From: an uncultured candidate division Zixibacteria bacterium | GTDB lineage: Bacteria > Zixibacteria > MSB-5A5 > UBA10806 | Length of the DNA: 64,000 nt | Direction: 5' to 3' | NCBI GenBank assembly: GCA_963801605.1 | Contig: CAWDFP010000011.1 | Coordinates: forward strand, 166,907 to 230,906 | In this document: piece after piece, positions 42,154 to 64,000 of the stretch | How the letters are laid out: the number at the start of each line of letters is the position of its first letter | Numbering within the stretch: position 1 is the first letter of the stretch | Translations under genes and position numbers: made by a program | The notes under the pieces: model-generated | Told to the model about the DNA's origin: nothing | Seen by the model: the letters and a program-made list of their open reading frames with translations, nothing else | The model's database searches: none

Positions 42154-42170
42154 CATACAAAAAAGAAGAA

Positions 42171-43136: not shown

Positions 43137-43372
43137 CGGTATTTGTCAAATTTTCTGTTGAATCTTGCATATTACTTCCTATCTTAACAATTGATATTGA
43201 TTGACAATTATCTCATAAAAACCTAATATCTGGCGCGACAAGATTTCGAGTTTCTTAGGTTTTGTTAAAGTTGGATTAAGGCTCGATTAACCGATCGCAA
43301 GCGAGATTGATATCTTTCTTTGTAATAAAAAGATATTGAACTTTTGCCATGTATATTGTTACCTTAATTAGG

Positions 43373-43390
43373 ATGTGAATTGATTCACAA
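43373..43390. promoter_or_regulatory. Rex-like (also CRP-like) operator
   Basis: ATGTGAA-TTGA-TTCACAA; one mismatch to the Rex consensus TTGTGAA-N4-TTCACAA. Lies 25 nt upstream of the DUF1015 start. Confidence 0.6.
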
Positions 43391-43415
43391 CTTGTGTTAC
43401 TGCTAAGAGGAGATT

Positions 43416-44660: not shown

Positions 44661-44676
44661 CAAGGAGACCTCGAAT

Positions 44677-45564
44677 ATGTTAATCTTGATTTCAGATGCG
44701 TTTGATCCCGGTTTGCCGAAAGTGCTTTCCAAATATGGTGAAGTCACCGAAGACAAGGCAAAAGTAAATGAAGCCGAAATTATTTTAGTAAGAAGTAAAA
44801 CCAAAGTTACCAAGGAATATATGGTCGGGGCCCACAATCTCAAAATGGTGATCCGCGGCGGCGTGGGGCTCGACAATATCGACTTGGCTTACGCGGCCGA
44901 AAACGGCATCATCGTCAGAAATACTGCCGATGCATCCACCACGGCGGTGGCGGAGTTGGCCTTTGGCTTGATGATCTCTCTGGCTAACAACGTGGTCACA
45001 TCGACTATCGGCACCCGTGAGGGAAAATGGCTGAAAAAGGAAGTTAAGAGAGTTGAGCTTTATGGAAAAACGTTGGGTATCCTTGGTCTGGGTCGGATCG
45101 GTATCGCTCTGGCCAGTCGAGCCGCCGCATTTAAGATGAATGTTCTGGGATGGCACCCCGATGTTAATTTCACCGATTTTGCGGATATCCGTCATAGCAT
45201 GACCGAGGTGTTGGAACAGTCCGATTTCGTCTCTTTGCACATGCCGGCTCTTGAAGAAACCAAGGGGATAATTAACGCCAAAAACCTGGCACATTTCAAA
45301 GATGGCGCTTTCCTGATCAACACTGCCCGCGGCAAGTTGATCGTGGAAAATGATCTGGTGGATGCTCTCAAGAGCGGCAAGCTCAGAGGCTATGCCACCG
45401 ACGTATATTTCTCGGATCCTCCTCCGCCGGATTCCCCGATTCTCACCGCCCCCAATACGATTCTCATGCCGCATGTCGGCGCCGAAACAAAAGAGAATCT
45501 GCTGCGGATCGGCGTCGTAGTCGACCGTTTGATTGAAGAATACGCGAAAACGCATAAAAAATAA
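44677..45564 (+). CDS. serA: D-3-phosphoglycerate dehydrogenase (short type, no ACT domain)
   Basis: RGGVGLDNID, AVAEL, GLGRIG, INTARG, PHVGAET; located next to serC. Confidence 0.8.
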   Translation: MLILISDAFDPGLPKVLSKYGEVTEDKAKVNEAEIILVRSKTKVTKEYMVGAHNLKMVIRGGVGLDNIDLAYAAENGIIVRNTADASTTAVAELAFGLMISLANNVVTSTIGTREGKWLKKEVKRVELYGKTLGILGLGRIGIALASRAAAFKMNVLGWHPDVNFTDFADIRHSMTEVLEQSDFVSLHMPALEETKGIINAKNLAHFKDGAFLINTARGKLIVENDLVDALKSGKLRGYATDVYFSDPPPPDSPILTAPNTILMPHVGAETKENLLRIGVVVDRLIEEYAKTHKK

Positions 45565-45577
45565 GAAAGGCTAAGAT

Positions 45578-46664
45578 ATGGCTAAGAGAGTATTCAATTT
45601 CAATCCCGGCCCGGCGGTACTGCCTCTTGATGTCCTGGAGACAATCAAGGCGGATATCCCCGATTATCACGGCACGGGCATGTCGGTAATGGAAATTTCA
45701 CATCGTTCCAAGGATTTCGAGGAGATCAATAACGCCGCTATGGCCCTGATGCGCGAATTGATGGGTCTCGGAGAAAACTACAAAGTGCTGTTTTTGGGCG
45801 GCGGGGCTTCATCCCAATTCGCCATGATTCCGATGAATTTCCTTCACCCCGGCAAGACTGCTGCTTATGTCGATACCGGCGCCTGGTCGAGCAAAGCGGT
45901 TAAAGAAGGCAAGCTCCTGGGACAAGTTCATATTGCTGCCTCAACCAAAGATGTCAATTATACCAAGCTGCCTAAGATTGCGGATATAAAATTCCCATCC
46001 GATGCCGCTTATCTGAGCATCACATCGAACGAGACTATTCATGGCAATCAGTTTGACGCCTTCCCGGAAACCGGCAATGTGCCTCTTATCTGCGATATGT
46101 CGTCGGATTTCCTCTCCCGTCGCCGCGATTTCGGAAAGTTTTCGGTAATCTATGCCGGCGCTCAGAAGAATATCGGTCCGGCAGGCGTGACTGTGGTGGT
46201 AATGCGCGAGGAGATGCTGGCCAAATGCAAGGATGGCAATCCCACGATGTTCGATTACCGGACGCATGCCAAGGAAAACTCGCTCTATAACACTCCTCCG
46301 GCATTCGGAATTTACGTTGTCAGATTGGTGCTGGAATGGGTCAAAAAGCAGGGCGGTTTGGTAGGCGGTGGAAAAAATCAATTGCGCCAAGAAAGATCGT
46401 ATCTACGGTGTCATGGATGCCAATCCTGATTATTTCAAGGGCACGGTTGAGAAAGCAAGCCGCAGTTGGATGAATATTACCATGAGACTTCCCTCGGAGG
46501 ATCTGGAAACCAAGTTTATCGCCGAGGCCAAGGCCAAAGGCTTTATCGGTCTCAAGGGTCACAGAAGCGTAGGCGGCATTCGCGTCTCGCTTTACAACGC
46601 AATGACGCTCGATGGAGCCAATCAGTTGGCCGATTTCATGGAGGCCTTCAAGAAGGCGAATTAA
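45578..46664 (+). CDS. serC: Phosphoserine aminotransferase (one-base frameshift near 46365)
   Basis: NFNPGPA, MEISHRS, DMSSD, YAGAQKNIGP, LYNTPP, GHRSVGGIRVSLYNA. Removing one G gives GGLVAVEKIN. Confidence 0.93.
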
Positions 46665-47295: not shown

Positions 47296-50200
47296 TTGTT
47301 TGTAAAACCTGCACTTAGGCTGGCCGTGTTAATGCTGATCTTAATGGCCGCTGTTTCAGCTTGGGCTGGAACCACCGGAAAGATCGCGGGCATTGTCACC
47401 GATAAAGAATCAGGCGAGCCCCTGCCAGGGGTAAACATGATGATTGTCGGAACGACAGTCGGCGCAGCCACGAACATCCACGGTGAGTTTTTCATTATCA
47501 ACGTTCCGCCCGGCACTTATACGCTCAGGGCTACGTTGATCGGTTATGGCCCGGTCGAAACTAAGAACGTCCAGGTCTCAGTTGATCTTACTACCACGAT
47601 CAATTTCCAACTGAGCACCCAGACGATTCAGATGGGCACCATCACGGTCGAGGCTCAAAAACCGCTAATTGAAAAAGATATCACCTCATCCAGGACGACC
47701 ATTACCCCAACTCAGCTGACCAATTCGGCTGTTGACGGTATTGTGAATCGCGCCAACCTTACGGCTGGTTCGGTCCTGGGTTCATTTCGCGGAGGCCGAG
47801 TCGATCAGGGAGAGGTCATCTTCATGCTGGATGGTGTCAACCTCTCCAATCCATTAGGCGAAACCAGAGTTGGCAGAAATCCCGGTTCTGGTACCAGTAC
47901 TGCCCTTTCGACCTATATCCCCAATGAGGCCATCGCCGAGGCCGAGGTTCTAACAGGGGGATTCGGGGCAGAGTATCCCAACGTACAATCGGCCATCATC
48001 AATATGGTCAGCAAAGAGGGCGGCGAAAAATACTCGGGCAAAATTAAATCGAAATCATCTCCCGAGGTCATTACCGGCAGCCATAATAATGTCAACGTCA
48101 ATTATTTGATTCCCGGCGCGGAAGGCAATCAGCTTGTCACGCTTAATCAGCCCAAAGTTGATAAATATGGCCGCAACAATTACTTCAACATGCGCCAGCA
48201 TGAATTCTCGTTTGGCGGGCCCATTCCAATCGCATCTGTCGACGTGCCCGGCAAACTATCATTCTTCACATCCGGTATATACTCTTCTACCCGAAGCTAT
48301 CAGGATCAGAGATCCTGGAGTAAATCGCAATCGATGATGGGTAAATTGGCGTACGATATTTCGGCATCCAAGAAACTCATCGTTTCGGGCTTAAAATCTT
48401 TTGGCAGCAGTCTGCCGTGGGACAGAGGCGAGTATTTCCATCTGTCCTGGGGTGCGCCAACATATTTCCATACCTATCCGCTCAGCACCGAAAACAACCA
48501 GCGTCAGACACTCGATCAATCCTATACGCCTTATAGCTGGATCGTTGCGCCCGGCCACGTTGAAGATCAGGCCGATACCGCCTTCTTCAGATACTTGTAC
48601 AACCACACATCCGACAGCACCTGGCTGACCACTCACTTTGGCCAATACGCCCTGGTGACCGATTCGTCATTATTAAACGGCGGTCGCGATAGCGTCAACA
48701 GCACCGGCTGGGCCAGAAGCTATTCGGGTTATGATATGGGCAACACCCTCGGCCGTCCTGAAACCTGGTCGAATCAATTTTCGGTCAATTTCACAAATAA
48801 TTTGAGCGTGAAGAGCTTCTACACCGTTAGCTATTCCAGATTCTTAAGCGCTCAAAGAGCCAGGGTATACGATCCCTGGGATGGCCATCCGCTTTCACCC
48901 GATGAGCTCGGACAGCAGAGATTTACGCCGAAAGTCACCGCCCTCTATGGTTCAATTCTGCGCGGTAACCCGATGTATATTTCGCGCTACAGTCAGGATG
49001 ATAAAGAAATCACCCAGAGCTTCAAGGCTGACTTCTCCAGCCAGGTGAATAGTTACAACTTTGTTAAAATCGGCGGCGAGAGCAAAAACTACGACCTTTT
49101 ATATGATTATCGCTCCAAAGCCTCCGGTAACAACGAATACAACTCATACTACCATGTAAAGCCGATACAACTCGGATTCTATGCCCAGGATAAGATCGAA
49201 ACTCAGGGTATGATCGTTAATGTCGGTTTGCGTTACGATTACTTCGATCCCAAGACCATCGTTCCGTTCAGCTTCCTGGACCCGCTCAATCCGGGTTATA
49301 ACGACGTGAACAGTCCTCTTTATGGACAGGTCGCCGATCTATCGGCCAGACTTGAAGAACCCATTCCCTGCGGAAGTGAAGCAACAGGTTTCGCCGCGTG
49401 TCGGTTTAAGCTTCCCGATTACCGAAAAGGACGTTTTGCACGTTACCTACGGGCATTATTTCCAATTGCCGGTATTTGATGATTTCTATACCAACCAGGC
49501 GTTCGATTTAAGAGGCGCCTTCAAGTATATCGGCAATCCCAATCTTGGTGCTGAAAAAACCGTGGCTTATGAAGCCGGTATCGAGCATGGCTTCAACGCC
49601 TACAACAAGGTGGCGGTAACTGGCTTCTTCAAGGATATCGCGGATCTTGTCAACCACAGGAGATATATCAATCCGGAGACCGGAAACATATTCTGGATTA
49701 ATTCCAATTCGGATTATGCCAGAGTCAAAGGATTCGAAATCACCTTAAGTCAAAGGCCGTGGCACAATTTCTCCGGCATCATTACTTACACTTATCAGAT
49801 TGCACGAGGAAAATCCTCTGATAAGACTCAGGACTTCCTCGACAACTACTACGGCTGGACGCCAAGGACCGAGGATTTCCCGTTGGATTGGGATCAGAGA
49901 CACACTGCCAAAGCTAATGTCAATTGGAGAAGTCCCAAGACATTGGGTCCGGCGTTGGGCGATTTCGGAATCGATGTGGTCTTCACGTTTGGTTCAGGCC
50001 GCCCGTTTACAGGTACCTCGAACGTGCTGCCGCCCAATCTGCCTGATATCAATAACAAGAGATTTCCGAACTCCTACCAACTCGATCTGCGCGTTGATAA
50101 GGGTATAGATTTTTACAGGGGCATGAATCTCGATGCTTTTGTTGAAATCCAGAATGTGACCAATAGAGCTAACATCAACCTGAACTCCGTCAACAGCGAC

Positions 50201-50314
50201 AACTTCAATGTCCAGTATTATGAGGTTTCCGATAATCCCACCGGGCAATTCGGAGATCCGACCTACTATACAACTCCGAGAAGAGTTCTCGCGGGTATCC
50301 AAATGGAGTTCTAG
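47296..50314 (+). CDS. TonB-dependent receptor with an N-terminal carboxypeptidase-regulatory-like domain (one-base frameshift near 49352)
   Basis: GTTGKIAG..DKESGEPLPGVN, plug motifs FRGGR and TGGFGAEY..SAIIN, YAQDKIE, GLRYDYF, SPRVGLSFP, GNPNL.AEKT..YE, terminal GIQMEF. Removing one T gives ARLKNPFPAEVK. Confidence 0.9.
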
Positions 50315-50362
50315 AATGGCATTTCGGGATCGAGACTTGTAAAAAAGAGAGGATTAGTAAAT

Positions 50363-52228
50363 ATGCGAAGAGAATTGTATAGGGGATCGGGACGAATGCT
50401 AATAGTACTGGGGCTTATCCTGGCTTTTAGTATGTCGGCCCTCGCCATGAAAAAAGAAATGGCCGACAATCCCCTTTTAGGTCATGGAGGTTTAGCCAAA
50501 CCTGAACTCAGCCAGGAGGTTGTCTGCCAGGTTGGCACAGTATTTAATAGAATTACAAATTCCACGGTTGAAAAGTTTAGCGGAACCAACGATTGGACCA
50601 TTTTAACCGGCGATGATGCCGCAATAATGCCGTCCATGAAACGCCAGGTTCCATCCAACTATGCCGCTATCAATAATTACTTGTACTTTGCAAGTTTCAG
50701 AGTTGGTATCGGTTCCAAATTGGTGCACTTTTCAACTGATACTTCACCGGGCATCACTGTAAAATCCACTAATAGTGATACCACCGCAATCAGCCAGTAT
50801 GACACCTATTATTCGATTTCGGACCAATCGCCATTGGTCGGTTCCGTTGATAAGATTAACGTCGAGGCGCATTGCAATACTTACGCCTGGTCGGAGTCTT
50901 ACAGATCCAATTTCATCGTTTACGATTATTGGATTCTTAACCTTAACGCCGACACTCTCCAGCCGCTGATCATGGCTTTTCACGCGGATTGTGACGTTTC
51001 CACAGCTGAAGGCGGATCGGGCGCTCAGGCCTGGTCACGCGATGACCTGGTGGATTATTACCGCAACGATGCTACCAAGGAATATATCTCCTATATGTAC
51101 GATGGTGATAATCCGAACGTAGCCGGAGATGATAACGGCGGCAATAAGATTCCAAAGGAATCGACCGGTTACATCGGTTCGAGACTTCTATTTTGTCCGG
51201 CGCGGATAGGCGATACCCAAACCGGTATTCAGGCCGGCCATGGCTGGTGGGATTGGAATTCCGACCCCGGTAGTGATGCCGACTGGATGCGCCTCATGAG
51301 CGACGGATTGTGGCTGTCGCCACCTCCATCCGTTCACGATTATCGTTTCCTTCAGAAACTGGGTCCGTTTGCCATTCCGCCAAACGATTCAATTAGAATC
51401 GTGTTCGCCTTTGGAGTAGGCGAAGGCCTTCAGGGTCTCAGAACTGATCTCGGCTGGGCCGATTCGCTTTACCGTCACAGCATTAATGCTGCCTATGGTT
51501 ACAGATGGCTTGGTCCATCGGCGCCCGCTTCGCCAACCATTGATTCGCTGGTTCCCGGCGATCGTCAGGTGAGACTCACCTGGGATAGCGTCGCTGAAAC
51601 TACCCCGGATCCGGCGACCGGTGAGATTGATTTCGAAGGATACCGCTTGTGGAGAAAAACCGGTAGCACTGGTAACTGGACCCTCCTTCTGGAGAGCGAT
51701 GTTATCGATGATATCGGCCTTAACACCGGGTTGGTACATGAGTATTTAGATACCGATGTGAGCAATGGATTCCAGTATTATTATGTCGTAACGGCGTATG
51801 ACAGAGGAAATCCTGCAATCGGCATTGAATCGTTTGAGTCTGGTAAATCTGGGGCTCGTAACGTAGAGCCCGGATTGAATGTTGGCACCGAGGGCGAAGC
51901 TAAATCGGGCATCCATGTGGTACCCAACCCATTCGTGCTATCGTCGCCGGTGGGTTTTGGTTTTACGCCTACCAACACCAATCCATCTCTTGAGAGAATA
52001 CTTTTCGTCAATCTGCCGCAAACGCCCAGCGTTACCATCACCATCTTTTCTCTCACGGGTGACGAGGTTATCAAGCTCTCTAAGGCAGACCCATTGTCAC
52101 GAACCCTGGATTGGGATTTAATCACCAAATCCAGACAAAAAGTCGTGGCCGGCGTCTACATGTACGTAGTCGAATCCGATGCTCCTGGTTTCAAGAATTT
52201 CATCGGTAAATTCATGGTTGTCCGCTAA
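50363..52228 (+). CDS. Secreted protein with an FN3-like domain and a T9SS type-A-like C-terminal sorting domain
   Basis: Signal peptide; PGDRQVRLTWD..FEGYRLWR..YYYVVTAYD; C-terminus IHVVPNPF..ILFVNLP..ITIFSLTGDEV..WDL..VVAGVYMYVV..GKFMVVR. Confidence 0.78.
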   Translation: MRRELYRGSGRMLIVLGLILAFSMSALAMKKEMADNPLLGHGGLAKPELSQEVVCQVGTVFNRITNSTVEKFSGTNDWTILTGDDAAIMPSMKRQVPSNYAAINNYLYFASFRVGIGSKLVHFSTDTSPGITVKSTNSDTTAISQYDTYYSISDQSPLVGSVDKINVEAHCNTYAWSESYRSNFIVYDYWILNLNADTLQPLIMAFHADCDVSTAEGGSGAQAWSRDDLVDYYRNDATKEYISYMYDGDNPNVAGDDNGGNKIPKESTGYIGSRLLFCPARIGDTQTGIQAGHGWWDWNSDPGSDADWMRLMSDGLWLSPPPSVHDYRFLQKLGPFAIPPNDSIRIVFAFGVGEGLQGLRTDLGWADSLYRHSINAAYGYRWLGPSAPASPTIDSLVPGDRQVRLTWDSVAETTPDPATGEIDFEGYRLWRKTGSTGNWTLLLESDVIDDIGLNTGLVHEYLDTDVSNGFQYYYVVTAYDRGNPAIGIESFESGKSGARNVEPGLNVGTEGEAKSGIHVVPNPFVLSSPVGFGFTPTNTNPSLERILFVNLPQTPSVTITIFSLTGDEVIKLSKADPLSRTLDWDLITKSRQKVVAGVYMYVVESDAPGFKNFIGKFMVVR

Positions 52229-52249
52229 GAAGTGGAGGTTGGAGATTAT

Positions 52250-53275
52250 ATGAGAAAAATACTTTTACCTGCGGTTCTAATTGCCGTCTTGGGTCTCTGC
52301 CTTCCAGCGCAGGCCCAATTCGCCAAGGTGGGCACCGTGGGATTGAAATTCCTGGATATAGGTGTAGGCGGTAGAGCGCTTGCCATGGGTGAGGCTTATG
52401 CTGCAGTCGCCAACGATGCCTCAGCCATATTTTGGAATCCGGCTGGCCTGGCCAATATAAAGAACGGCGATTTCTTTGCCGGTTATACGAACTGGCCGGC
52501 CGATATCAACCTGTATTCAGCGGCTTTTGCCAAGAAGACCAATTTTGGTCATATTGGTTTTGCTTTTACTACTCTTAATACCGGCCTTATGAACCGGACC
52601 ACTGCCCGCGACCCCGATGGCAACTCCAGCGGGACTTTCGCATTCGAAGATTGGTCGGCGGGTGCGTCTTATGCCCGTTACCTGACAGACCAGTTTGCGT
52701 TTGGCACCAACTTTAAGCTGCTGCGCGAAAAGTTGGCCGATTGGGATAAAACCAGTTGGGCAGTTGATATCGGAACCTATTATGACACCGGTTTCAAGTC
52801 GTTGCGGATCGGTCTTGCCATTCTCAATTTCGGGCCCGATATGCATTACAACATTGCTAACATCGATGGCGTTCCGACTGCTCCGCCATACAATGGCCAT
52901 CCCGATGGGCTGGACAACAATGGTGACGGTTTGGTCGACAACAGCGTCGAAAGCAAGGCTGTACCGCTGCCCCTGACTTTCAGGGCGGGTGTGGCTTTCG
53001 AGGTATACCAGACCGAAAATTCCAAGGCAACTGTTGCCGCCGAATTGATGCATCCCTCTGATAACGAGGAACGCTATAATTTCGGTGGCGAATATTGGTT
53101 CCAGGACTTGCTCGCTCTGCGCGCAGGTTATAAAATCAATATGGATGAGGGCGGTTTCACCGCCGGCTTGGGTATTAAGCTGCCAGTTTTGAGCGGAGCT
53201 CACTTTGATTATGCTTACACCAATATGGGTTTGTTGAAAGCTGTGCATCGCGGCTCTTTCAACATATCGTTTTAA
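52250..53275 (+). CDS. PorV/PorQ family outer-membrane beta-barrel
   Basis: FLDIGVGGRALAMGEAY.AVANDASAIFWNPAGLA, LALRAGY, FDYAY, terminal FNISF. Confidence 0.85.
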   Translation: MRKILLPAVLIAVLGLCLPAQAQFAKVGTVGLKFLDIGVGGRALAMGEAYAAVANDASAIFWNPAGLANIKNGDFFAGYTNWPADINLYSAAFAKKTNFGHIGFAFTTLNTGLMNRTTARDPDGNSSGTFAFEDWSAGASYARYLTDQFAFGTNFKLLREKLADWDKTSWAVDIGTYYDTGFKSLRIGLAILNFGPDMHYNIANIDGVPTAPPYNGHPDGLDNNGDGLVDNSVESKAVPLPLTFRAGVAFEVYQTENSKATVAAELMHPSDNEERYNFGGEYWFQDLLALRAGYKINMDEGGFTAGLGIKLPVLSGAHFDYAYTNMGLLKAVHRGSFNISF

Positions 53276-53302
53276 CGCAACGCCAATTAAGGAGGATTAA
53301 AA

Positions 53303-55042
53303 GTGAATTTACTTAGAAATCCAGTCCTGAAAGTGGTGGGGATATTGGCGTTGGCGATCGTGTTAGTCGCTGGCTGCACAAAAAAGCCAGCCGCACCAAA
53401 TGCTGATATTCCACCTATTACCAGGATTACCACTTATGGAATCGCCACGGTCCCCGATTCGGCGTCTTTCTATTTAGTCACCGTTTATTGGGGAGCCTCG
53501 GATCCTGACGGCCAGGCTGAGAAGTTTCGCTATTGGGTCGATCAAGCCGGACTCGCTGATTCCATGAAAACTGAGACTTACGAAACCAGCGTGACCACGA
53601 GATTGTTGTTCAATTCAACTGTGTCAACGCATACTTTTTATGTTCAAGCCAGAGATAACCGCGACATCTGGGATCCCAACGCCGCATCGATGGTTATTAG
53701 CATTGGCAACATTAGCAATGTCAACAGATTCAATCCAACGACTTTGCCGGTTACCGTTCCCCCCGATGGTGCCTTAACCTCGCGCGGGGTACATTTCGTG
53801 ATCAACGGCATAGACCTGGATGGTTCCGTTGTCAATTTCCAGCGCGCTGTCGATGATACCACCGAATGGGTTACGGTTGCTCCGTCATTTATTCTGGCCA
53901 GAGTGTCGACCCTTGAGCTCGACATAACTCCGACTGATCTTTCGCTTGGACCGCATGTTGTTTATGTCCGGGCGATCGACAACTTTGGCAATCTGGATGA
54001 GTCACCGCTAACGATCAGCTTTGTGGCGGTGGATACTCTTCGTCCGGATTTGTCCGTAGTAGCCGGAGCTATTCCGCACGCTTTCTATTTCCTGCCGTCT
54101 GGCGGAACTACGACCGATGTAGCAACTACCTGGGCCGGTGATGCGACCTGGTATTATAGTACTCTTCAGTACCGTTATGCGGTAGATGATACCGCCAATT
54201 GGTCAGACCCGATTACCGCCAGTCAGGCCAACCTTACCGGCTTGCAGGCTGGCGCCCATCAATTCTTCATTCAGGCTATCGACCAGGCCGGTAACGCCAC
54301 AACCTTCTCCACCGATTTTGGTGTAGGACAATTAACCGGCGAAAGAGGCATCCTGGTTATCAACGGCATCGATTGGTCGCAATATGCATCCGAAGCCGCG
54401 CCAATGTATGCGGCGAATGGTCCGTGGGGAAACCACACGGTTCAATTCTGGGATTTCTTCTCCGGTTTCCAGAGCGATTATCCGCCGAACATCGTACCGC
54501 TTTATAAAGGCTCAGGTGCAGTCCCCGGCGATACACTGGGGCATTACAGCGCGATCGTCATGATCATGAACGAGTATGCCAATAATCCGCCGAGCGATCT
54601 CGATATCTTCAATTCGATGCGGCCCCTATTCATGTCGTATCTTAACGGCGGTGGAGACATTCTATTGGCAACTCGTTTTGGCGCCGACTTCATTAAAGAA
54701 GATCTGGCTCATTATGGCCTTACTGCCCCCGATTCTTTAGAATTTAACCAGATTGGGGTTGATCCCAGCAGTAACGGCTTGGTTGCAGCGGTTAGCGGTT
54801 TGGTGAATATCACCAGAACCGCCGGTTGGTCTCTTACCGACCTGCTGGCGCCACCTACTGATCCGGCGGTAACCGTGCTGTTTAATACGCCAAGTTATCC
54901 ATCGTCTGTCGGTGGTGTCATCGTTCAGCCAACGGGCAAGGGCAAGCTTGCGTTCATAGCCGGCAGACCGTACCGTTTCGAGCACACTTCGATGGCGGCT
55001 GATTTTGACTATATTTTAACCCATTACTTTGGCGAGCAATAA
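53303..55042 (+). CDS. Surface lipoprotein with Ig-like repeats and a C-terminal alpha/beta domain
   Basis: Lipobox LVAGC; repeated W...D.DG....(F/Y)....D and H.F.V.A.D..GN motifs; C-domain ILVINGIDW..YLNGGGDILL. Confidence 0.72.
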   Translation: MNLLRNPVLKVVGILALAIVLVAGCTKKPAAPNADIPPITRITTYGIATVPDSASFYLVTVYWGASDPDGQAEKFRYWVDQAGLADSMKTETYETSVTTRLLFNSTVSTHTFYVQARDNRDIWDPNAASMVISIGNISNVNRFNPTTLPVTVPPDGALTSRGVHFVINGIDLDGSVVNFQRAVDDTTEWVTVAPSFILARVSTLELDITPTDLSLGPHVVYVRAIDNFGNLDESPLTISFVAVDTLRPDLSVVAGAIPHAFYFLPSGGTTTDVATTWAGDATWYYSTLQYRYAVDDTANWSDPITASQANLTGLQAGAHQFFIQAIDQAGNATTFSTDFGVGQLTGERGILVINGIDWSQYASEAAPMYAANGPWGNHTVQFWDFFSGFQSDYPPNIVPLYKGSGAVPGDTLGHYSAIVMIMNEYANNPPSDLDIFNSMRPLFMSYLNGGGDILLATRFGADFIKEDLAHYGLTAPDSLEFNQIGVDPSSNGLVAAVSGLVNITRTAGWSLTDLLAPPTDPAVTVLFNTPSYPSSVGGVIVQPTGKGKLAFIAGRPYRFEHTSMAADFDYILTHYFGEQ

Positions 55043-55055
55043 GGAGAGTATTGAG

Positions 55056-56473
55056 ATGATAAAAAAGACTCCTTTAACGTTTTGGATTGCCGGATTGCTG
55101 ACGGCGCTCGCCATCATCATCTCCGGCTGTTCAACCAAGAAACCCTGGGGTACGAACCCGAATATTCCGTTCGCGGTAAGTTTTATATCGGCGCCTACGG
55201 ATTCGGTTCCCGCAAATGTCCACACATCTTTTTCGTGGGCGGTTACTGGCGGAACAGGGGCGGTGACTTCTCAGTATAGAGTCGGCGATAACGCCTGGTC
55301 TGAGCAAGCCGCTATCACCACGGCCACTCTTTCGAACTTGGCGGTTGGGACATACACATTTTCTGTCCAGGCCCAGGATGCCGAAGGTCATACCGCGACT
55401 GCCAGCACCTCCTTTATCGTAAAGGAGGCAGCGGCCATACCTCCCGATACAATTCCACCGTATGTTTCAATCATTGGATCGCCGGCGGAAAGTTCATTTG
55501 TTGCCGTTGGATCGGTTGTGGCGTTTGCATGGACCGGCTTTGATTCCCTGGGAAGCGGTGCTGATCTGTTATTCCAGTACAGTTTCGGTGATGAAACATC
55601 AGAATGGCTTCCGATTCGTACGGTAACCTTCAACAATGTTTCCGCCGCCAATCCCGCCACGTTTACAGTTCGGGCCAAGGATGTCGCCGGTAATATTTCG
55701 ACTACGGCCAGTATGGTGTTCTTCATTAAGATCGCCAACATACTTTATGTTGATGATTATCAATGGCTCGATACTTATGGCTATGTCGATCGTGCCAAGG
55801 AAAGAGACCAGAAAGGTTTCTATCGCGAGGCTCTCAAGGGTTACGCATTTGCTGAGTGGGATATCGCCGCTCAGGGAATGCCGGATTCGGCTTATATAAT
55901 TCAATTCTCGACCGTCGTTTTCGCATCCGATACCAAATTGAATGATGGATCCGATACCTGGTGGGTAGATGTCGGCGATGTTCACGGTGGTGTGCTTCGT
56001 TATTATATGGAGCATAACGGTCACTTGCTGGCAACTGGAGCTTCAGTCCTCAGGTGGATTTATAACACTAATCCTCCAGCGGCCGGAGATTTCGAGTATG
56101 ATTGGTTTGGACTCGATTCCACCGGCGGATGGGATTATTGGGCCGATTTTACATGGGCTGTTAAAGCTCCGGCCACAAACCTGGATCTGCCGGATTCCAT
56201 GAAGATTGACGTTGCTAAAAATGGTACTCAGGTTGATTACGCCGAAAACATCTTCGGATTTAGACCCAATGTTCAATCGATTTTTGTTAAGGGTTTGGAT
56301 GTTGATGGCGGAGAACCGAGGATTATGGAGTATCAGTAGGGCACATTTATTCTCCTGCAGGACATGCCAGGAGCGCTCTAATTGATTTCGATACGTATTC
56401 CATGCCATTACCAGCAATACGTCAAACATTCCATACGATTCTCAATCAGTTCGGTGAAGGCCCCGGGCTTTAA
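55056..56473 (+). CDS. Surface lipoprotein with Ig-like repeats and a C-terminal alpha/beta domain (frameshift near 56318)
   Basis: Lipobox ISGC; YTFSVQAQDAEG and FTVRAKDVAGN; ILYVDD..YMEHNGHLL. Adding one base extends the ORF to ..TILNQFGEGPGL, resembling the ILTHYFGEQ ending of the upstream gene. Confidence 0.7.
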
Positions 56474-56494
56474 ACCAAACCGAGATCTGTAACG

Positions 56495-56533
56495 AGGCCC
56501 GCCCGCCACAATCGGCGGGTGGGCCTTTCTTTT
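56495..56533 (+). terminator. Strong hairpin with U-tract between the lipoprotein gene and dacB
   Basis: AGGCCCGCCCGCC-ACAATC-GGCGGGTGGGCCT followed by TTCTTTT. Confidence 0.7.
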
Positions 56534-56536
56534 AAG

Positions 56537-58007
56537 ATGAGTGAAATTTTGATTCGAATTATTTTAGTGCTAATTCTCTGTCTTACTGCGTCTGCCGGAG
56601 CCGCCGTAAATGATGTTTTAAGCAGGCTGCTGTCTGATTCCCTTCTTTCGAGCGCCTCGATTGGCGTTGAGCTGTTCGATATCGATGCCGACAGCGTCAT
56701 ACTGGAACATGAGAGCGGCAAACTATTTACTCCGGCTTCGAATCTCAAGCTGTTTACCAGCGCGGCCGCATTGGAGCGCCTGGGGCCAAGGTTTAGATTT
56801 AAAACAAATTTCTTTTATTCCGGTTCGATTGATAAAAAGGGGAAGCTCGATGGAAATCTTATTGTTGTTGGCGGAGGGGACCCACTGATCTCCGGGCGGT
56901 TTAGATCGGGTGTAACTGAAGTATTAGAATTTTGGGCTGATTCACTTAAAGCTCGGGGAATAAAAGAGATTCCGTTCGGGCTTCGGGTGGATAATTCCCT
57001 GTTTTCATCGCCAGAGTTGGGACCGGGATGGTCATGGGATGATCTGTCGTACTGGTATGCCTGCCCGATATCGGCGCTTTTCGTTTAACGATAATTGCGT
57101 GGATTTGAAATTTTTCCCCGGCAAGAAGGCGGGTGATCCTGCCAGGATCGAGTATAATCCGCAAGACTAATTATATATCGATATATAATATCGCCAAAAC
57201 TGTTGCCGGCGGAATCGAGTTTCACTCTCGATTATTACCGGATGCCTCAGAGACCAATAATGTCACCTTTTTCGGAGGCATTCCTCGATTTGCGACAGCG
57301 CCGGACGGTCAGATTACGTATCGGTTTACAGGCCGGAGATATATACGCTTACAATTTTCAAGGATGTCTTACAGAGAAAGGGGATCGAGGTAAACGGCGA
57401 TATATTGGCGATGACGGATATTAAGGAGATTCACACCTTCGATATGGAAAAATTAACTCCGCTGTTTACCTGGCAATCGGATTCGCTTCCGGTTGTCCTC
57501 AAGGTAATCAATACCAACAGCCAGAATTTTTTCGCGGAGCAGACGCTTAGGATGCTGGGCGTAGCGGAAGAAAGCGATGGGTCATTTAAGGGTGGCGTAA
57601 AGGCTGTGTATGAATATCTTTATTCGCTTGGAATAACAGATCGTGATATAATAATGTACGATGGTTCGGGATTGGCATATATGAATCTCGTCAAACCGAA
57701 CGCAGTAATCAGGCTTTTGACTGCCATGTCAAAAAGCCCCAATTTTGGAGTATATTTGGAATCTCTGGCAAATCCCGAAAAAGACAGGGCGCTTAGAAGC
57801 AGGCTCAAGGGCGTTTCGAATAGAGGCAACGTCTATGCTAAAACGGGTTATATCTCCGGAGCCAGCACATTTTCGGGATATATCAGGGCGCCCAAAAGCG
57901 GGCACTTATTAGCCTTTTCGATAATGGTAAATAATTACGCCTGTGACAACTCCTATTCCGAGGCCTGGCAGGATTCACTTGTGGCGGCGGTGCTCGGCGA
58001 ATATTAG
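56537..58007 (+). CDS. dacB: D-alanyl-D-alanine carboxypeptidase/endopeptidase PBP4 (S13) (several frameshifts, 57080-57400)
   Basis: SxxK in PASNLK, GGGDP, GWSWDD, SxN in NSQN, DGSGL, KTG in AKTGY, FSIMVN. Confidence 0.88.
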
Positions 58008-59288
58008 ATGGATTATTTTCAGTATCATAACGGCGAACTGTATTGCGAGGATGTTTCCATTCGGGAAATCGCCGATAAATATTCCACTCCCTTATTTATC
58101 TATAGCCTGAAGACGCTCTTACGTCATTTCCGCGTGACACAAGAGGCGTTTGGCGAAATTCCTCATATCATCTGCTATGCCGCCAAAGCCAATCCAAAAT
58201 TAGCGATCCTGAAGGTTGCCGCTATTTCGGGCGCTGGATGTGATGTCGTCTCCCAGGGCGAATTGCGGGCTGCTCTAATGGCTGGTATCGAGCCGCAAAA
58301 AATCGTTTTCTCCGGTGTAGGGAAGAGTGAGCAGGAGATCGAATACGCAATCTCGTCTAAAATCCTGTTCCTTTGTGCCGAATCGCTTGCGGAATTAGAG
58401 ACGATTGCAGAAATCGGCCGTCGGAAAAGAATTGTGGTTCCAATAGCAATTAGGGTCAATCCCGATATCGATCCGGGGACACATCCATATATCGCTACCG
58501 GGCTAAAGAAGACCAAGTTTGGACTTAGCGAGAAAACCGCCAAGGCGGCTTATAAGTTTGCAATGAAGGAAAAATGGCTGGAGCCGATCGGCATTTCCAT
58601 GCATATAGGCTCGCAAGTTGAATCGGTTAAACCATATATAGCGGCGGCCGGAAAAGTTGTAAATTTATACAAATATTTATGGAAACAAAGCATACATTTA
58701 AGATATATAGATATCGGCGGTGGATGGGCGGCGCATCTTAGAGTTAATAATCGCCTGCCAAACCCTGCCGATTACGTCTCGGCTGTCAAAGACCTCTTTA
58801 GCGGTTTGCCGGTTACGGTTATCGCCGAGCCTGGTAGATCGCTGGTTGGCAATGCCGGGATTTTGATTATGAGGACGATTGCGACCAAAAAAACCAATGT
58901 GAAGAATTTTTGCATTGTCGATGCCGGCATGAACGACTTTGTACGGCCGTCGCTCTACAACGCCAAACATCGGATTGAACCGGTAATCAGACGAGGCGGC
59001 GCTAAAGTGGAGTACGATGTCGTAGGACCGGTTTGCGAAAGCGGAGATTTCTTAGGTCGCGCGGTCAAACTGCCGAAAATATATAAGGGAGATCTGTTGT
59101 GCCTGTTCACGGCGGGAGCCTATGGATCGGCTATGAGCTCCAACTATAACAGCCGCAGGCGCGCTGCCGAGGTTGCCGTGGCGGGCAAAAAGGTTATATT
59201 AATTAAGAAACGGGAAACTTTTGATGATCTAATCGCCGGGCAATCCATAACCGGCATAGACGATAGATTAGTGAGGGGAATTAAGTGA
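58008..59288 (+). CDS. lysA: Diaminopimelate decarboxylase
   Basis: YAAKAN, RVNPD..THPYIATG..KFG, HIGSQ, EPGR, GPVCESGD, GAYG..MSSNYN. Confidence 0.94.
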   Translation: MDYFQYHNGELYCEDVSIREIADKYSTPLFIYSLKTLLRHFRVTQEAFGEIPHIICYAAKANPKLAILKVAAISGAGCDVVSQGELRAALMAGIEPQKIVFSGVGKSEQEIEYAISSKILFLCAESLAELETIAEIGRRKRIVVPIAIRVNPDIDPGTHPYIATGLKKTKFGLSEKTAKAAYKFAMKEKWLEPIGISMHIGSQVESVKPYIAAAGKVVNLYKYLWKQSIHLRYIDIGGGWAAHLRVNNRLPNPADYVSAVKDLFSGLPVTVIAEPGRSLVGNAGILIMRTIATKKTNVKNFCIVDAGMNDFVRPSLYNAKHRIEPVIRRGGAKVEYDVVGPVCESGDFLGRAVKLPKIYKGDLLCLFTAGAYGSAMSSNYNSRRRAAEVAVAGKKVILIKKRETFDDLIAGQSITGIDDRLVRGIK

Positions 59289-60397
59289 AAGGCAATCTCA
59301 GGCCCTCGCACATTGAAATTGACTTGAGGGCTCTTCGAAATAACCTCTCAGTTGTAAAAGGCTGGGCTGGCGCCAACTCCAAACTCATGGCTGTTGTTAA
59401 GGCCAACGCCTACGGGCACGGAGCGGTTAAGGTCTCGGAGGTTCTCTCCGAGGGTAAAGTTGATTTTTTGGGCGTGGCTTTTCTCGAGGAAGCCCGCGAG
59501 CTTAAAGAAGCCGGGATTAAGACTCCAATCGTATTACTCTATCCCGAAACAGACGAACGCAGCGCCGAGGCCGTCCGAAACGGTTTTCATATCACTATTA
59601 CGGACCTCGATCAATGCGATGCCATCAAAACGATCGTGGGGAATGATTATCCCATAAATTATTTCGTAAAACTTGAAACCGGAATGAACCGGTATGGCAT
59701 GCCCCCCGATGAAGTCGAAACTGCCGCCGAAACCAAAGACAGCCGGCCGGGTTCTCATCTGATGGGCATCACTACCAATTTGGCCGATTCCAATGGCAAC
59801 AATTCTCTTCTGGCCAAAAAGCAGGTTGGGAATTTTATGCATGTCATGGAATCGATCCAGAGACTCTCACAGAACGGCCTGCTCTATTCTCTGGAATCAT
59901 CCGGCATCCTCTGGAAAAATAAAAAGACTGATGGCAGCTTGGTACGCGTGGGGCATCTGCTTTATGGTCTGGTGCCCGGCGGCGCCTCTTCTTCTGAGCT
60001 TCAGCCAGTGATGTCCGTTAAGAGCCGCGTAGCCGAAATTCACAATCTCAAAGCTGGTGACGGCGTGGGATATGGATTCTCATTCGTAGCCTCGAAAGAG
60101 GCAAAAGTCGCCACGATTCCGATGGGTTATGCTGATGGCTATCCCTGGGCGCTTTCCAACAAAGGCCGCGTGGTAATCAAAGGGAAAAAAGCTCCAATCG
60201 TAGGGCGTATATGCATGGACGCTTTTATGATCGATATCACCGATATTCCCGGCTGTCAGGAGGGGGATGAGGTGGTGATCCTGGGGCAGATGGATGATGA
60301 GAAAATCGACGCTCATGAATTGGGACAATGGTCGGGATCGTTTTCTTATGAGATTCTATCGCGCTGGAGCCGGAGGCTTCCAAGAATTTATCTATGA
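59285..60397 (+). CDS. alr: Alanine racemase family protein (divergent)
   Basis: AVVKANAYGHG, ETGMNRYG, GVGYG, GYADG, GRICMD. Confidence 0.85.
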   Translation: MKGNLRPSHIEIDLRALRNNLSVVKGWAGANSKLMAVVKANAYGHGAVKVSEVLSEGKVDFLGVAFLEEARELKEAGIKTPIVLLYPETDERSAEAVRNGFHITITDLDQCDAIKTIVGNDYPINYFVKLETGMNRYGMPPDEVETAAETKDSRPGSHLMGITTNLADSNGNNSLLAKKQVGNFMHVMESIQRLSQNGLLYSLESSGILWKNKKTDGSLVRVGHLLYGLVPGGASSSELQPVMSVKSRVAEIHNLKAGDGVGYGFSFVASKEAKVATIPMGYADGYPWALSNKGRVVIKGKKAPIVGRICMDAFMIDITDIPGCQEGDEVVILGQMDDEKIDAHELGQWSGSFSYEILSRWSRRLPRIYL

Positions 60398-61176
60398 CAA
60401 TGCGTTTTAATGTCAGCGTAGCCGATCTTCGCAAAGAGTCCTCCAACCGCTCGGAGAGAGTCAGCCAGGGGCTTTTCAACGAAATTGTAGAGGTAACTGA
60501 AGATGGGGAGAAAATGCAAAAAGTGCGTTTCTCCGGCGGCTACGAGGGCTGGGTATTAAAGCAGTTTTTAAGCGATCATAATGGCTTTTATGGGCACGGT
60601 CCCTATATAATCGATAGCGGACTTGCTCCCGCCTTTGAAAAACCCGACCTGGTTTCGAAACGAGTAACGCTTATTCCTTATGGATGCAAGCTGTATGGAA
60701 CCAGCGAGGACGGCTTTCTTCGGATTAGAACCGACCGCTATGGTATAATCTTTATCTCCGGTTACAATATCATTGGCGGAGATGAGATTCAGCCTTTAAC
60801 CGATGACGATCCCTATATTTTAACCAAGGAAGCTGAGAAGTTTTTGGGATCGCCTTATCTCTGGGGCGGGCGAACGATGTTTGGGATCGACTGTTCGGCT
60901 TTCGTGGGGGCGATCGCGGCCAGATTTGGAGTAATATTACCACGCGATACCAAAGAACAAATCGCGGTCGGGACCAGGATCGCCAGAGAGGATGTCAAAC
61001 GCGGCGATTTGCTGTTTTTCCCCGGACATGTAGCCCTGGCAATCACCAATGATCTTTATATCCACTCCAGCCGATCTAACGGTGGAGTGGCTTACAATAG
61101 CTTCGATTTTAAGAGTTCCCTGTACAATGAATCGTTGCACAAATCGTTTATCATGGCGCGGAGAATTTTCGCGTGA
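60394..61176 (+). CDS. NlpC/P60 (C40) peptidase with SH3-like N-terminus (YkfC / dipeptidyl-peptidase VI-like)
   Basis: PYLWGG..GIDCSAF, LPRD, GDLLFFPGHV, YIHSS. No signal peptide. Confidence 0.88.
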   Translation: MTMRFNVSVADLRKESSNRSERVSQGLFNEIVEVTEDGEKMQKVRFSGGYEGWVLKQFLSDHNGFYGHGPYIIDSGLAPAFEKPDLVSKRVTLIPYGCKLYGTSEDGFLRIRTDRYGIIFISGYNIIGGDEIQPLTDDDPYILTKEAEKFLGSPYLWGGRTMFGIDCSAFVGAIAARFGVILPRDTKEQIAVGTRIAREDVKRGDLLFFPGHVALAITNDLYIHSSRSNGGVAYNSFDFKSSLYNESLHKSFIMARRIFA

Positions 61177-62297
61177 GAGCATTTCTCAAATTTGGAATTA
61201 TCGCTCTTACGTTTGCGGGAGCGCTCATTATACTCCTGTTATTGAAAGGAGAAAGTTTGTCGGGCAAAAAACTTCATACTATGATTTTCCTCGAAACCGC
61301 CGCCGATTGGCAGGGATGCTCAATTAAAAGCTGCCGCTTTGATGACAATTCCGTTTTTTTATTGAACTCCTCTGAGCCTGCGGAATTGACTACTCAACCG
61401 ATTACACCGGGCTTTCCGTTTGACGAGCTGATTCTCACCTGGAATGCGTCAGAACCGGATTCATTATCGGTTCTGGAATTTGATCTCGAGCTCTCCGCGG
61501 ATAAGGAAACCTGGTATCAATTCCATTACCAGACCTGGGGTCCGCTTATCGAATCAAAGTGGGGCAGCTCCGGCGTGTCTGAGCATAAGGGGGTTGGAAA
61601 GGTCAATACCGACTGTCTGAATCTCGAAACTCCGATGCGGTTCGTTAAGGTGCATGTCAGAGCTTTAGGCGATCCGGGCGCGAGAGACATCGAGCTTCGC
61701 AGATTAGCGTTTTCTTTCTCAAGTAAGAATTCCACATGGGATGATTATCAAACTCATCGTTGGAAAGGAAATGCCAATTTTGAGTATGTAAAATTAGCGG
61801 TGCCGTATTTTACGCAGAGGAATCTGCCCGAGGATATCTCCGGTAGTACCTGCTCGCCGACATCCGTAGGCATGGTGTTGAATTATTATGGTAAGGATAT
61901 AGACCCGGAGCAGTTTGCTCATCTGGCTTACGATCCGCGCGGCAAGATATTCGGCAATTGGCCTCATAATATGGCGGCAGCCTACGCTTGTGGAATGGCC
62001 AAAACCTGGGTGGAGAGCCATTCGAGTTTCGATGAAATCTCCAATGAGGTGCGCGCGGGGAAACCGGTAATTATCAGCATTGCCTATGGTTTTGATGAAC
62101 TGCCGCATTCTCCTATCCACGAGGCTCCGGACGGACACCTGATCTGCGTGGTTGGATTCAATGGCCCCGATACGGTTATCTGCAACGATCCGGCGGGGCA
62201 CAATATCGATGATGGCATAATCAGCTATCCTCGGCATGAATTGGAAAAGGTGTGGATTGGGCATGGGGGCATAGCGTATCATCTATGGCCAAACTGA
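61173..62297 (+). CDS. Peptidase C39-like family protein with an N-terminal membrane anchor
   Basis: VPYFTQ, CSPTSVGMVLNYYG, GNWPHN, GHLICVVGF, VICNDPA. Confidence 0.82.
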   Translation: MRAFLKFGIIALTFAGALIILLLLKGESLSGKKLHTMIFLETAADWQGCSIKSCRFDDNSVFLLNSSEPAELTTQPITPGFPFDELILTWNASEPDSLSVLEFDLELSADKETWYQFHYQTWGPLIESKWGSSGVSEHKGVGKVNTDCLNLETPMRFVKVHVRALGDPGARDIELRRLAFSFSSKNSTWDDYQTHRWKGNANFEYVKLAVPYFTQRNLPEDISGSTCSPTSVGMVLNYYGKDIDPEQFAHLAYDPRGKIFGNWPHNMAAAYACGMAKTWVESHSSFDEISNEVRAGKPVIISIAYGFDELPHSPIHEAPDGHLICVVGFNGPDTVICNDPAGHNIDDGIISYPRHELEKVWIGHGGIAYHLWPN

Positions 62298-63226
62298 TCA
62301 AACCAAAAAGACTCCGTGTAGGTTCGAACGTAGCGGTGATCGCTCCGTCAGGGCCTCCCAGGCCGGAGCGTTTAAGACGGGGCATCGAATTATTAACAAG
62401 GCATGGTTATAATTTACGGGTTTATCCTCAGGTAAGGCGGCAACGCGGCTATCTGGCAGGCGATGATAAAGTGCGAGCAGCAGCTCTCATGGATGCTTTC
62501 GCCGATACATCTATTGATGCCATCTTTGCGGCGCGCGGCGGTTTCGGCTGCCAGCGGCTCCTTCCATATATCGATTTTAAAATCATTAAACACAATCCCA
62601 AACCGATTGTAGGTTATTCCGATCTTACCGTTTTACTTTTATCCATATATAAAGAATGCGGGATGGTAACATTTCATGGCCCGATGGTCTCGATTGATTT
62701 CGGTTCCAGGCCGGGAAAGTTTATCGCGGGAAATTTTTATAAAGCTTTGGAAAGCACGGAGCCTATCGGCCTTATCCCCAACGCGCCTAAATATAAATAT
62801 GGCAGTATCCACGGCGGAAAGGCCGAAGGTGCAATTGTAGGGGGCAATCTCTCGCTGATCTCCCGCATGGTTGGCACCGGATTTCTGCCGTCGTTCAAAG
62901 ATAAAATCGTATTTCTGGAAGATACCGATGAGCAGCCTTACCGAATCGATTCCTATTTGGCACAGCTTTTTCAGGCTACCGATATTTCAGAGGGGAAGGG
63001 TTTTATAATCGGGGAAATTACCAATAGTCTGCCTCACGGGAAAAACGCCAAGAGCCTGACTATGGCCCAAGTGCTGAAAGATTATTTTGTGCCTTTGAAA
63101 AAACCGGTTATCACCGGTTATCCCTGCGGCCACGGAGACGAAAAGGTTACAATTCCTATCGGGGTAAGGGTCGCAATTGACGCCGATAAAAAGACTCTGG
63201 ATATAAAGGAGGCGGGTGTTATATGA
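62285..63226 (+). CDS. ldcA: Muramoyltetrapeptide LD-carboxypeptidase (S66)
   Basis: VIAPSG, RGGFG, GYSDLT, FHGPM, GGNL, FLED, GHG. Confidence 0.9.
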   Translation: MAKLIKPKRLRVGSNVAVIAPSGPPRPERLRRGIELLTRHGYNLRVYPQVRRQRGYLAGDDKVRAAALMDAFADTSIDAIFAARGGFGCQRLLPYIDFKIIKHNPKPIVGYSDLTVLLLSIYKECGMVTFHGPMVSIDFGSRPGKFIAGNFYKALESTEPIGLIPNAPKYKYGSIHGGKAEGAIVGGNLSLISRMVGTGFLPSFKDKIVFLEDTDEQPYRIDSYLAQLFQATDISEGKGFIIGEITNSLPHGKNAKSLTMAQVLKDYFVPLKKPVITGYPCGHGDEKVTIPIGVRVAIDADKKTLDIKEAGVI

Positions 63227-64000
63227 AAATGACGATCAGGGAACACGAGATTCATTTAATAAATACATTCCGAACGACTCATGGGGCCACAGATATTAAA
63301 AAGCCATTGATTGTCGATATTGATGGCGGTTTGGGCGAGGCGGCGTATGTCAATTATTATGGCGAAAGCTATGAAACCGTAAAAGCCTTTATTGAAAAAG
63401 CGAAGAATGTTATCGGCGACGATCCCTTTCAACTCGAAGAATTGGGGAAGAAGCTCGACGGTATCGCTGCCTGGAATTACAGCGCCAAGGCCGCCATCGA
63501 TATGGCCATGCATGATAAAGCCTGCAAAACTCTGGGAATTCCGCTCTACAAATATTTCGGTATTACGCCCAGGGAGGATATGGAGACATCGTTTACGATA
63601 TCTATTTCTAATCCGGATGATATGAAACGGCAAACCGAGGAATCCCCGGGATACCATGTTTATAAAGTCAAGGTTGGTGTGCCCGGCGATATCGAAATGG
63701 TAGCGGCGGTCAGGGAGGCTACATCGGCCAGGATAAGAGTTGACGCCAACGAAGGCTGGACTCTCAAAGAAGCGATGACGCGGATTAAAGAACTCGAAAA
63801 ACTCGATGTGGAATTTATCGAACAGCCTCTGCACCGTGATGATTTTGAGGGTTTCCGCATTCTTCGCCGAAACGTAGATATGCCCCTTTTCGCCGATGAG
63901 GGAATATTCCGAGCAGGGGATATCCCCAAGTACGTAGGTTTGGTTGATGGCATCAATATTAAGCTCTGCAAATCGGGCGGATTGCGGGAAGCTTTTAAGA
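63223..64000 (+). CDS. Dipeptide (L-Ala-D/L-Glu) epimerase, enolase superfamily (runs off the window edge)
   Basis: Not in the ORF track; read manually from ATG 63223: AAIDMAMHD, YKVKVG, RVDANEGW, FIEQP, FADE, NIKLCKSGG. Confidence 0.9.
   Translation, partial: MKMTIREHEIHLINTFRTTHGATDIKKPLIVDIDGGLGEAAYVNYYGESYETVKAFIEKAKNVIGDDPFQLEELGKKLDGIAAWNYSAKAAIDMAMHDKACKTLGIPLYKYFGITPREDMETSFTISISNPDDMKRQTEESPGYHVYKVKVGVPGDIEMVAAVREATSARIRVDANEGWTLKEAMTRIKELEKLDVEFIEQPLHRDDFEGFRILRRNVDMPLFADEGIFRAGDIPKYVGLVDGINIKLCKSGGLREAFK

Follow-up and report, generated by a model that had tools for sequence, protein, structure and literature searches.

Among the known systems closest to the genes described here are the dpp-ykfABC layout of Bacillus subtilis and the stem-degradation layout ycjG-mpaA-mppA of Escherichia coli, the latter seen here in sequence. 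For Bacteroides thetaiotaomicron, a recycling path for peptidoglycan stem peptides through BT1087, BT1314 (YkfC) and BT1313 (YkfB) has been proposed, and YkfC enzymes that recycle free peptides are marked by a Tyr of the SH3b1 domain and an Asp of the NlpC/P60 domain, which restrict them to a free N-terminal L-Ala (PMC4600125; this and the other papers are cited from excerpts). As to wall chemistry, Fusobacterium nucleatum has no diaminopimelate (DAP) route and a lanthionine wall (PMC11602996), and the cystathionine beta-synthase (CBS) of Mycobacterium tuberculosis forms lanthionine from Cys (PMC9232105). Here we describe a gene row, dacB-lysA-alr-nlpC-C39-ldcA-epimerase-amidase, found in a 64,000-nucleotide (nt) stretch of DNA (the window) from an uncultured bacterium of the candidate division Zixibacteria (assembly GCA_963801605.1, contig CAWDFP010000011.1). 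We consider it moderately probable that this eight-gene row strips stems from wall fragments and cuts them to amino acids, that its LysA makes lysine from the DAP of other bacteria's walls, and that the host's own wall likely carries meso-lanthionine.

Gene row

An earlier note on this DNA had proposed a translationally coupled row of seven genes. An open reading frame (ORF) check of the window confirmed all seven genes and six junctions at the same coordinates, and the order recurs in relatives, so that it is not a product of chance. The lysA ATG at 58008 comes directly after the dacB stop, whose last base is 58007; GTGA or ATGA overlaps of 4 nt each follow at 59285, 60394, 61173 and 63223, and the C39 gene and ldcA overlap by 13 nt (62285-62297). 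The genes are:

56537..58007, + strand: dacB, S13 DD-carboxy/endopeptidase (PBP4-like) with hydrophobic N-terminus; ASNLK, SQN and KTG motifs present; frameshifted in the assembly
58008..59288, + strand: lysA, diaminopimelate decarboxylase (TIGR01048), sole genome copy
59285..60397, + strand: alr, alanine racemase (TIGR00492) of the operon-linked clade, sole copy
60394..61176, + strand: predicted YkfC-type SH3+NlpC/P60 gamma-D-Glu-diamino acid peptidase, no signal peptide
61173..62297, + strand: predicted membrane-anchored C39-like cysteine peptidase (N-terminal helix, beta-sandwich, papain-like domain)
62285..63226, + strand: ldcA, predicted S66 LD-carboxypeptidase, no signal peptide
63223..64000, + strand: predicted YkfB-type L-Ala-D/L-Glu epimerase, cut by the contig end

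Pfam domains along the row are S13, Orn/DAP/Arg decarboxylase, Ala racemase, SH3+NlpC/P60, Peptidase_C39_2, S66 and MR/MLE, and lysA and alr clear their NCBIfam cut-offs. Hydrophobic N-termini are found in DacB, the C39-like protein and the amidase, and none is found in LysA, Alr, NlpC/P60, LdcA or the epimerase.

Below, G000 is the genome that holds the window, C-numbers are its contigs, and f, g and L labels are families, genera and loci of relatives. The window ends where contig C11 ends, inside the epimerase gene. Contig C5 starts with the last 73 epimerase residues followed by an Amidase_3 gene; since relatives have this amidase gene behind the epimerase gene too, the row is of eight genes, the last being a predicted MurNAc-L-Ala amidase. 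The amidase that the earlier note had suggested looking for is thus directly downstream. In the G000 assembly dacB has several frame changes between about 57085 and 57400. It is a single intact gene of 479-512 amino acids in relatives holding it whole, and other G000 genes are broken alike: serC (45578-46664), the TonB receptor (47296-50314), the second lipoprotein gene (55056-56474) and the mur cluster including murE (C9:28585-37400). For these reasons the dacB breaks are probably sequence (indel) errors of the assembly.

Stem-peptide enzymes

With intact catalytic motifs, a conserved order and the amidase now in place, the row appears to be the stem-peptide dismantling set that the earlier note had seen in it. 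The NlpC/P60 protein keeps its SH3b domain and Cys-His-His triad. Its nearest solved relatives are Bacteroides YkfC structures, and its GYEGW Tyr and PRD Asp align with those of 3PVQ/3NPF; this free-N-terminus signature fits the linked amidase. For the epimerase, a relative's full-length copy was used as query and found 3IJI as the best solved relative (E 7.7e-72). Alignment with 3IJI and 1JPM/1TKK shows that the KxK motif, metal ligands and DxD motif (DLD) are kept, as is the loop Arg typical of such epimerases, which lines up with residue 24. The protein scores below every NCBIfam epimerase cut-off, the best being the N-acetyl-D-Glu racemase DgcA (221.8 versus 400).

Stems would not be converted entirely to L-amino acids by the row itself, as had been suggested, since it ends at L-Ala-L-Glu and contains no dipeptidase; one is needed from outside the row, and two M20-like genes lie elsewhere in G000. 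No Mpl scored over its cut-off in five of five genomes, which argues that stems are degraded and not re-ligated. The row contains no peptide transporter; AnmK, also proposed as a neighbour to look for, is present in 40 of 41 genomes and in G000 lies away from the row. G000 has a row of nagZ, anmK and a SpoIID-type gene (L181:5468-8821), and this NagZ-AnmK pair points to ordinary turnover of the own wall as well. Tblastn gave no match in G000 for MurQ, MurP or MpaA.

Conservation in relatives

Conservation was scored in 20 of the 27 C39-positive relatives. The complete row, dacB to amidase, is present in 10 of the 20, and the part from alr to epimerase-amidase in 19; the contig of the twentieth begins inside nlpC. 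Genus g4 has the row broken between lysA and alr; three of its genomes carry the part from the TonB receptor gene to dacB-lysA as a separate block elsewhere. An apparent fusion of lysA and alr in one same-genus relative traced to missing bases and was rejected. The g9 locus has no dacB, lysA or ldcA. Five genomes of families f4, f6, f8 and f11 have alr-(nlpC or C39)-epimerase-amidase with TonB and lysA hits absent (two f4 genomes examined keep alr-nlpC-epimerase-amidase), and alr is unlinked to the row in f5, f9, f10, f13 and one f7 genome. Those Alrs that are linked group in a single clade (support 99/98; 14 of 25 tree rows; midpoint root). From this locus distribution and the Alr clade, alr, peptidase, epimerase and amidase would be an old core to which lysA was added. 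Among named organisms, Zixibacteria supply most of the closest relatives of the C39-like protein, and the Alr and LysA homologs mostly bear the name of Zixibacteria as well. Unrelated neighbours, e.g. an ABC transporter on the opposite strand, are equally syntenic with the row.

The YkfC gene is tandemly duplicated in some genera, the second copy having a signal peptide (L031:7784-9504, L034, L037, L032, L035), and G000 has a second, unlinked YkfC copy (C6:66913-67707).

LysA and the DAP route

LysA scores 472.8 bits with TIGR01048 (cut-off 297.9) and carries the pyridoxal phosphate (PLP)-binding Lys, HIGSQ, EPGR and GPVCESGD, which we take to be the LysA motifs. The gene is rare, with 19 of 201 phylum genomes having it. 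The enzymes that should precede it were searched for by family and by tblastn. DapB was found in 0 of 41 relatives and in one of 201 phylum genomes, the DapA family in only 2 of 41 relatives, and the Asd/ArgC/LysY family in 6 of 41 relatives and in none of 14 in the host family; this last absence also argues against the LysW route. The same family searches were positive in 11-14 of 14 control genomes. Tblastn of E. coli ThrA, Asd, DapA, DapB, DapD, ThrB, ThrC and CarA against G000 gave no match, and the controls DnaK, IleS, IspH and CysK all matched. Aspartokinase was not found; two AA_kinase matches in G000 look by inspection like UMP kinase and carbamate kinase. The pattern of absence also holds in single-contig genomes.

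Since Asd, DapA and DapB were not found, LysA cannot end the known de novo DAP route. With no known internal supply, its meso-DAP would come from outside unless an unknown route exists, and LysA likely makes lysine from meso-DAP scavenged there. No lysine 2,3-aminomutase scored over cut-off in five genomes, which argues that lysine is a building block and not a fuel. Literature searches on Zixibacteria with peptidoglycan, diaminopimelate, lysine or auxotrophy, and necromass gave nothing on topic as judged by title and start of abstract, subscription papers lying outside their coverage. Genes for Thr, Arg (ArgC family) and carbamoyl-phosphate synthase also had no match in G000, which suggests a broad amino-acid auxotrophy.

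The own wall

DapF (C6:1043516-1044352 in G000) is found in 195 of 201 phylum genomes, has the DAP-epimerase motifs and matches true DAP epimerases best. MurE in G000 and in five of five relatives has GGDRD and SDNPR, which we take as the mark of the DAP type. DapF and a DAP-type MurE without DapA or DapB across the phylum constitute a well-supported genomic anomaly. A near-universal DapF in the absence of DapA and DapB is best accounted for if the cells make an LL-diamino diacid themselves, lanthionine being the simplest candidate, and a missing DAP route together with a MurE for a diamino diacid fits lanthionine-type peptidoglycan. The own wall may carry meso-lanthionine as the third stem residue.

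G000 has three CysK/CBS paralogs. One is a short stand-alone CBS-like gene (C6:1733751-1734746; L180:6752-7747) that is 62-82% identical across f1-f2 and has a context common to f1, f2, f5, f7, f9 and f11; its product is a candidate lanthionine or cysteate synthase. CysK-like and ThrC-like genes also stand, by inspection, in a pyrimidine/purine degradation-type cluster with xanthine-dehydrogenase-like genes (L178:5257-13913).

A class-I aminotransferase gene lies directly before dapF in most of 20 loci and most families (L049:6293-10062; L183-L202). The pair is often preceded by dinB/lexA and followed by argS, an MFS-like gene or trpE. In some DapFs, Ser replaces the second catalytic Cys. An Alr-fold DAP epimerase, DapF2, is noted in PMC13759103; neither dapA nor dapB is named in the text of that paper.

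Alanine racemase

Alr scores 319.3 bits with TIGR00492 (cut-off 168), and its structure model has a predicted local distance difference test (pLDDT) of 86.6. The equivalents of Lys39, Arg136, Arg219, Tyr265 and Tyr354 are invariant in 120 of 120 homologs. The His166 position holds Asn in 110, Gln in nine and His in one of the 120, and the His127 position Phe or Tyr in all; the window Alr has Asn and Phe. Known alanine racemases have a relay of His200-Arg219-His166-Tyr265 (PMC6411801, PMC4517790), and the window Alr is without the His166 catalytic relay to Tyr265. As Ser at position 200 is known from DadX, only the His166 and His127 changes are unusual. An altered specificity is possible.

Other sources of D-Ala were looked for in G000. 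The other Ala_racemase_N match is a barrel-only protein of 236 amino acids, rejected as a second alr copy, and the single class-IV aminotransferase, considered as a D-amino acid transaminase, is IlvE. With Ddl present and IlvE the sole class-IV aminotransferase, Alr is probably the housekeeping D-Ala source too, and not a purely catabolic recruit. Second Alr-fold copies in four genomes (L061, L063, L065, L066) form a separate clade with KGNAY and without the Arg-Cys-Met-Asp motif, and are probably another racemase.

C39-like peptidase

The model of the C39-like protein (pLDDT 92.5) has an anchor helix, a beta-sandwich and a papain-like domain, and Gln215, Cys227, His322 and Asp339 are invariant catalytic residues. 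Fold neighbours are double-glycine peptidases, 3ERV (Z 17.7, root-mean-square deviation (rmsd) 2.8, 156 aligned) and the pseudomurein isopeptidase PeiR (Z 16.7, rmsd 2.6, 151 aligned). In the excerpted part of PMC10318531 the PF13529 family is linked to transporters and is given no wall role, and a literature search on PF13529 with peptidoglycan gave no paper on recycling, as judged by title or start of abstract.

Outside Zixibacteria, eight of 58 C39 loci have a link to wall recycling; this survey took in Pfam runs for 16 of the 22 long homologs, 32 of the 49 neighbours listed and two L110 genes. Three of the eight are fusions of C39 to SH3+NlpC/P60 (YkfC) (L117, L132, L140). The others are C39-NlpC-amidase (L110), epimerase-Opp-C39-YkfC (L136), Opp-C39-DppA (L138), MurQ...C39-peptide-binding protein (L118) and epimerase-M20-C39 (L127). 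Three further loci lie before an M23 peptidase gene, and the remaining non-Zixibacteria loci show no wall-recycling link. We infer that the C39-like enzyme may be a stem or cross-link peptidase.

Upstream locus

Directly before the row lie two features:

47296..56474, + strand: TonB-dependent receptor, 621-amino-acid protein, PorV-like barrel and two lipoproteins
56494..56533, + strand: terminator-like hairpin (14 pairs, 11 of them G-C) and T-tract, between the last lipoprotein gene and dacB

The hairpin and T-tract follow the last lipoprotein gene in 12 of 12 aligned junctions, with 98% of cells paired. Seven of 13 pairs are changed on both sides, and none of 500 shuffles scored as high, a measure inflated by relatedness. 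In most junctions dacB starts about 10-25 nt past the hairpin, which leaves little room for a promoter of its own and suggests read-through instead. A promoter scan was uninformative (13 sites versus 10.8 expected). The TonB locus is linked to the row in families f1-f3 and is unlinked from the core row in f4, f6, f8, f11 and genus g9; at least three TonB-PorV loci are present in G000.

Further upstream (39580-46664) are tryptophanase-like, split transketolase, DUF1015, serA-like and serC-like genes, and some relatives keep the tryptophanase-transketolase block in synteny with the row.

Proposed explanation and alternatives

The sequences themselves show which genes are present, their order, motifs and copy number, and where they are absent; the enzyme activities, the lanthionine wall and the read-through are deduced from these. 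In the reading we favour, the exported amidase, DacB and the anchored C39-like peptidase would free and trim stems outside the inner membrane, and a putative transporter would import them. LdcA would then remove D-Ala4, YkfC would release the diamino acid, and the epimerase would yield L-Ala-L-Glu for a dipeptidase encoded elsewhere. Alr would interconvert D- and L-Ala both ways, also supplying D-Ala for new wall, and LysA would turn scavenged DAP into lysine. Stems of the cell's own wall would be recycled by these enzymes too; their third residue is likely meso-lanthionine, which the CBS-like enzyme and DapF would form and the DAP-type MurE would attach. The row would be read through from an upstream promoter past a leaky terminator.

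Several points weigh against this account. In family f4 the core row is present although DapF was found in none of five genomes (G025 and G034 among them). The best-scoring models for the short CBS-like protein are those of CBS and cysteate synthase, and it falls short of their cut-offs; its copies do not all fall in one clade of the tree, and no lanthionine synthase is named among the solved matches listed (60 of 99). The DapF homolog of F. nucleatum is a histidine racemase, according to the excerpted part of PMC11602996. With His166 lost, the alanine activity of Alr does not appear assured. AmpG was found in none of five genomes, nor did any importer of stems come to light. The completeness of G000 is 87%, and an absence here means not found in the genomes searched; these genomes are also kin, so that phylum and family counts are not independent.

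A wider version would have the whole phylum build a lanthionine-cross-linked wall by a CBS-like synthase and DapF, with LysA added to the recycling operon in one branch, where only foreign DAP-type walls would yield lysine; the anchored C39-like enzyme would represent a new class of isopeptidase or bridge-cutting enzyme for wall peptides, which other phyla reuse beside YkfC or in fusion with it. We offer this tentatively, as the less probable side of the question.

Of the alternatives, a meso-DAP wall with DAP auxotrophy, in which the row frees DAP for MurE, LysA takes the surplus and DapF converts scavenged LL-DAP, seems to us unlikely. It would account for a DAP-type MurE with no de novo DAP route found, the MFS-like gene after dapF in several families (by inspection) could be read in its favour, and muropeptide auxotrophy has a precedent in Fidelibacter IA91 (excerpt of PMC11652737). 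However, it would make a whole free-living phylum dependent on outside DAP and set LysA in competition with MurE; most scavenged DAP should already be meso, although DapF is kept so widely; and MurE, MurF and Ddl are kept, unlike in IA91. Recycling of the own wall, with LL-DAP from an unrecognised route (perhaps through the aminotransferase before dapF) and lysA as the last biosynthetic step placed among wall genes, is very doubtful: the aminotransferase scores far below DapL cut-offs, aspartokinase, Asd, DapA and DapB were not found, and lysA occurs in 19 genomes versus 195 for dapF, even though the recurrent position of the aminotransferase gene, the single copies of lysA and alr and the presence of NagZ-AnmK all agree with it.

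The earlier note had united TonB receptor, lipoproteins and row in one possible necromass locus, which would take in foreign murein and break it down to support growth; we regard this as improbable. In its favour, all 12 aligned junctions have the last lipoprotein gene immediately before the row, dacB has scant promoter room behind the hairpin, and in three g4 genomes the block from TonB to dacB-lysA moved away from alr...amidase as a unit. Against these stand the conserved terminator-like hairpin between both parts, the core row without a TonB locus in f4, f6, f8, f11 and g9, the presence of at least three TonB-PorV loci in G000, the equal synteny of unrelated neighbours and the lack of a lysine 2,3-aminomutase over cut-off; the synteny with the TonB locus that the note had suggested checking holds in f1-f3. 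That note had also inferred that the normally biosynthetic lysA and alr are recruited to catabolism, and had suggested looking for second, housekeeping copies. No second lysA was found in G000, and both genes are single-copy there. Salvage by LysA is likely, and a purely catabolic Alr is not, given its probable housekeeping role. Of the dap genes that the note had suggested seeking elsewhere in the genome, dapF is present in G000, and Asd, DapA and DapB were not found there.

Comparison with known systems

If the favoured explanation is true, Zixibacteria of sediment and groundwater would be auxotrophic for lysine and draw on bacterial necromass, and media for this uncultured phylum might be supplemented with lysine, cysteine, DAP or sacculi. 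The phylum would join Fusobacteria as a second large lineage with lanthionine walls, and a subgroup of PF13529, an uncharacterised peptidase family, would gain a candidate role in wall recycling. A natural Alr clade that does without the His166 relay also comes to light.

The recycling chemistry is known, and the arrangement appears new. As in B. subtilis dpp-ykfABC and E. coli ycjG-mpaA-mppA, an LD-carboxypeptidase, a gamma-D-Glu-DAP peptidase and an Ala-Glu epimerase would act in series; unlike those layouts, the row has no peptide transporter and has lysA, alr, dacB, an amidase and C39, and MpaA was not found in G000. The order of amidase, D-Ala removal, YkfC and epimerase is that of the path proposed for B. 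thetaiotaomicron, and the nearest solved relatives of the row's NlpC/P60 and epimerase are Bacteroides proteins. In contrast to that path, as far as the excerpt describes it, the row couples all steps and adds DacB, Alr, LysA and the C39-like protein, in a host without a known DAP route. The C39-like protein shares the papain-like fold and intact catalytic residues with PF13529, 3ERV and PeiR and differs from them in its membrane anchor and beta-sandwich.

Fidelibacter multiformis IA91 likewise relies on wall pieces of other bacteria in an energy-poor setting; it is without wall synthesis genes, whereas in these Zixibacteria the Mur ligases and Ddl are retained and the diamino-acid/lysine route alone is missing (PMC11652737, in excerpt). 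With F. nucleatum they share the lack of a DAP pathway, a DapF homolog and a candidate synthase of the CysK/CBS fold (PMC11602996, in excerpt). Unlike it, the Zixibacteria DapF keeps the DAP-epimerase motifs, and some lineages have lysA.

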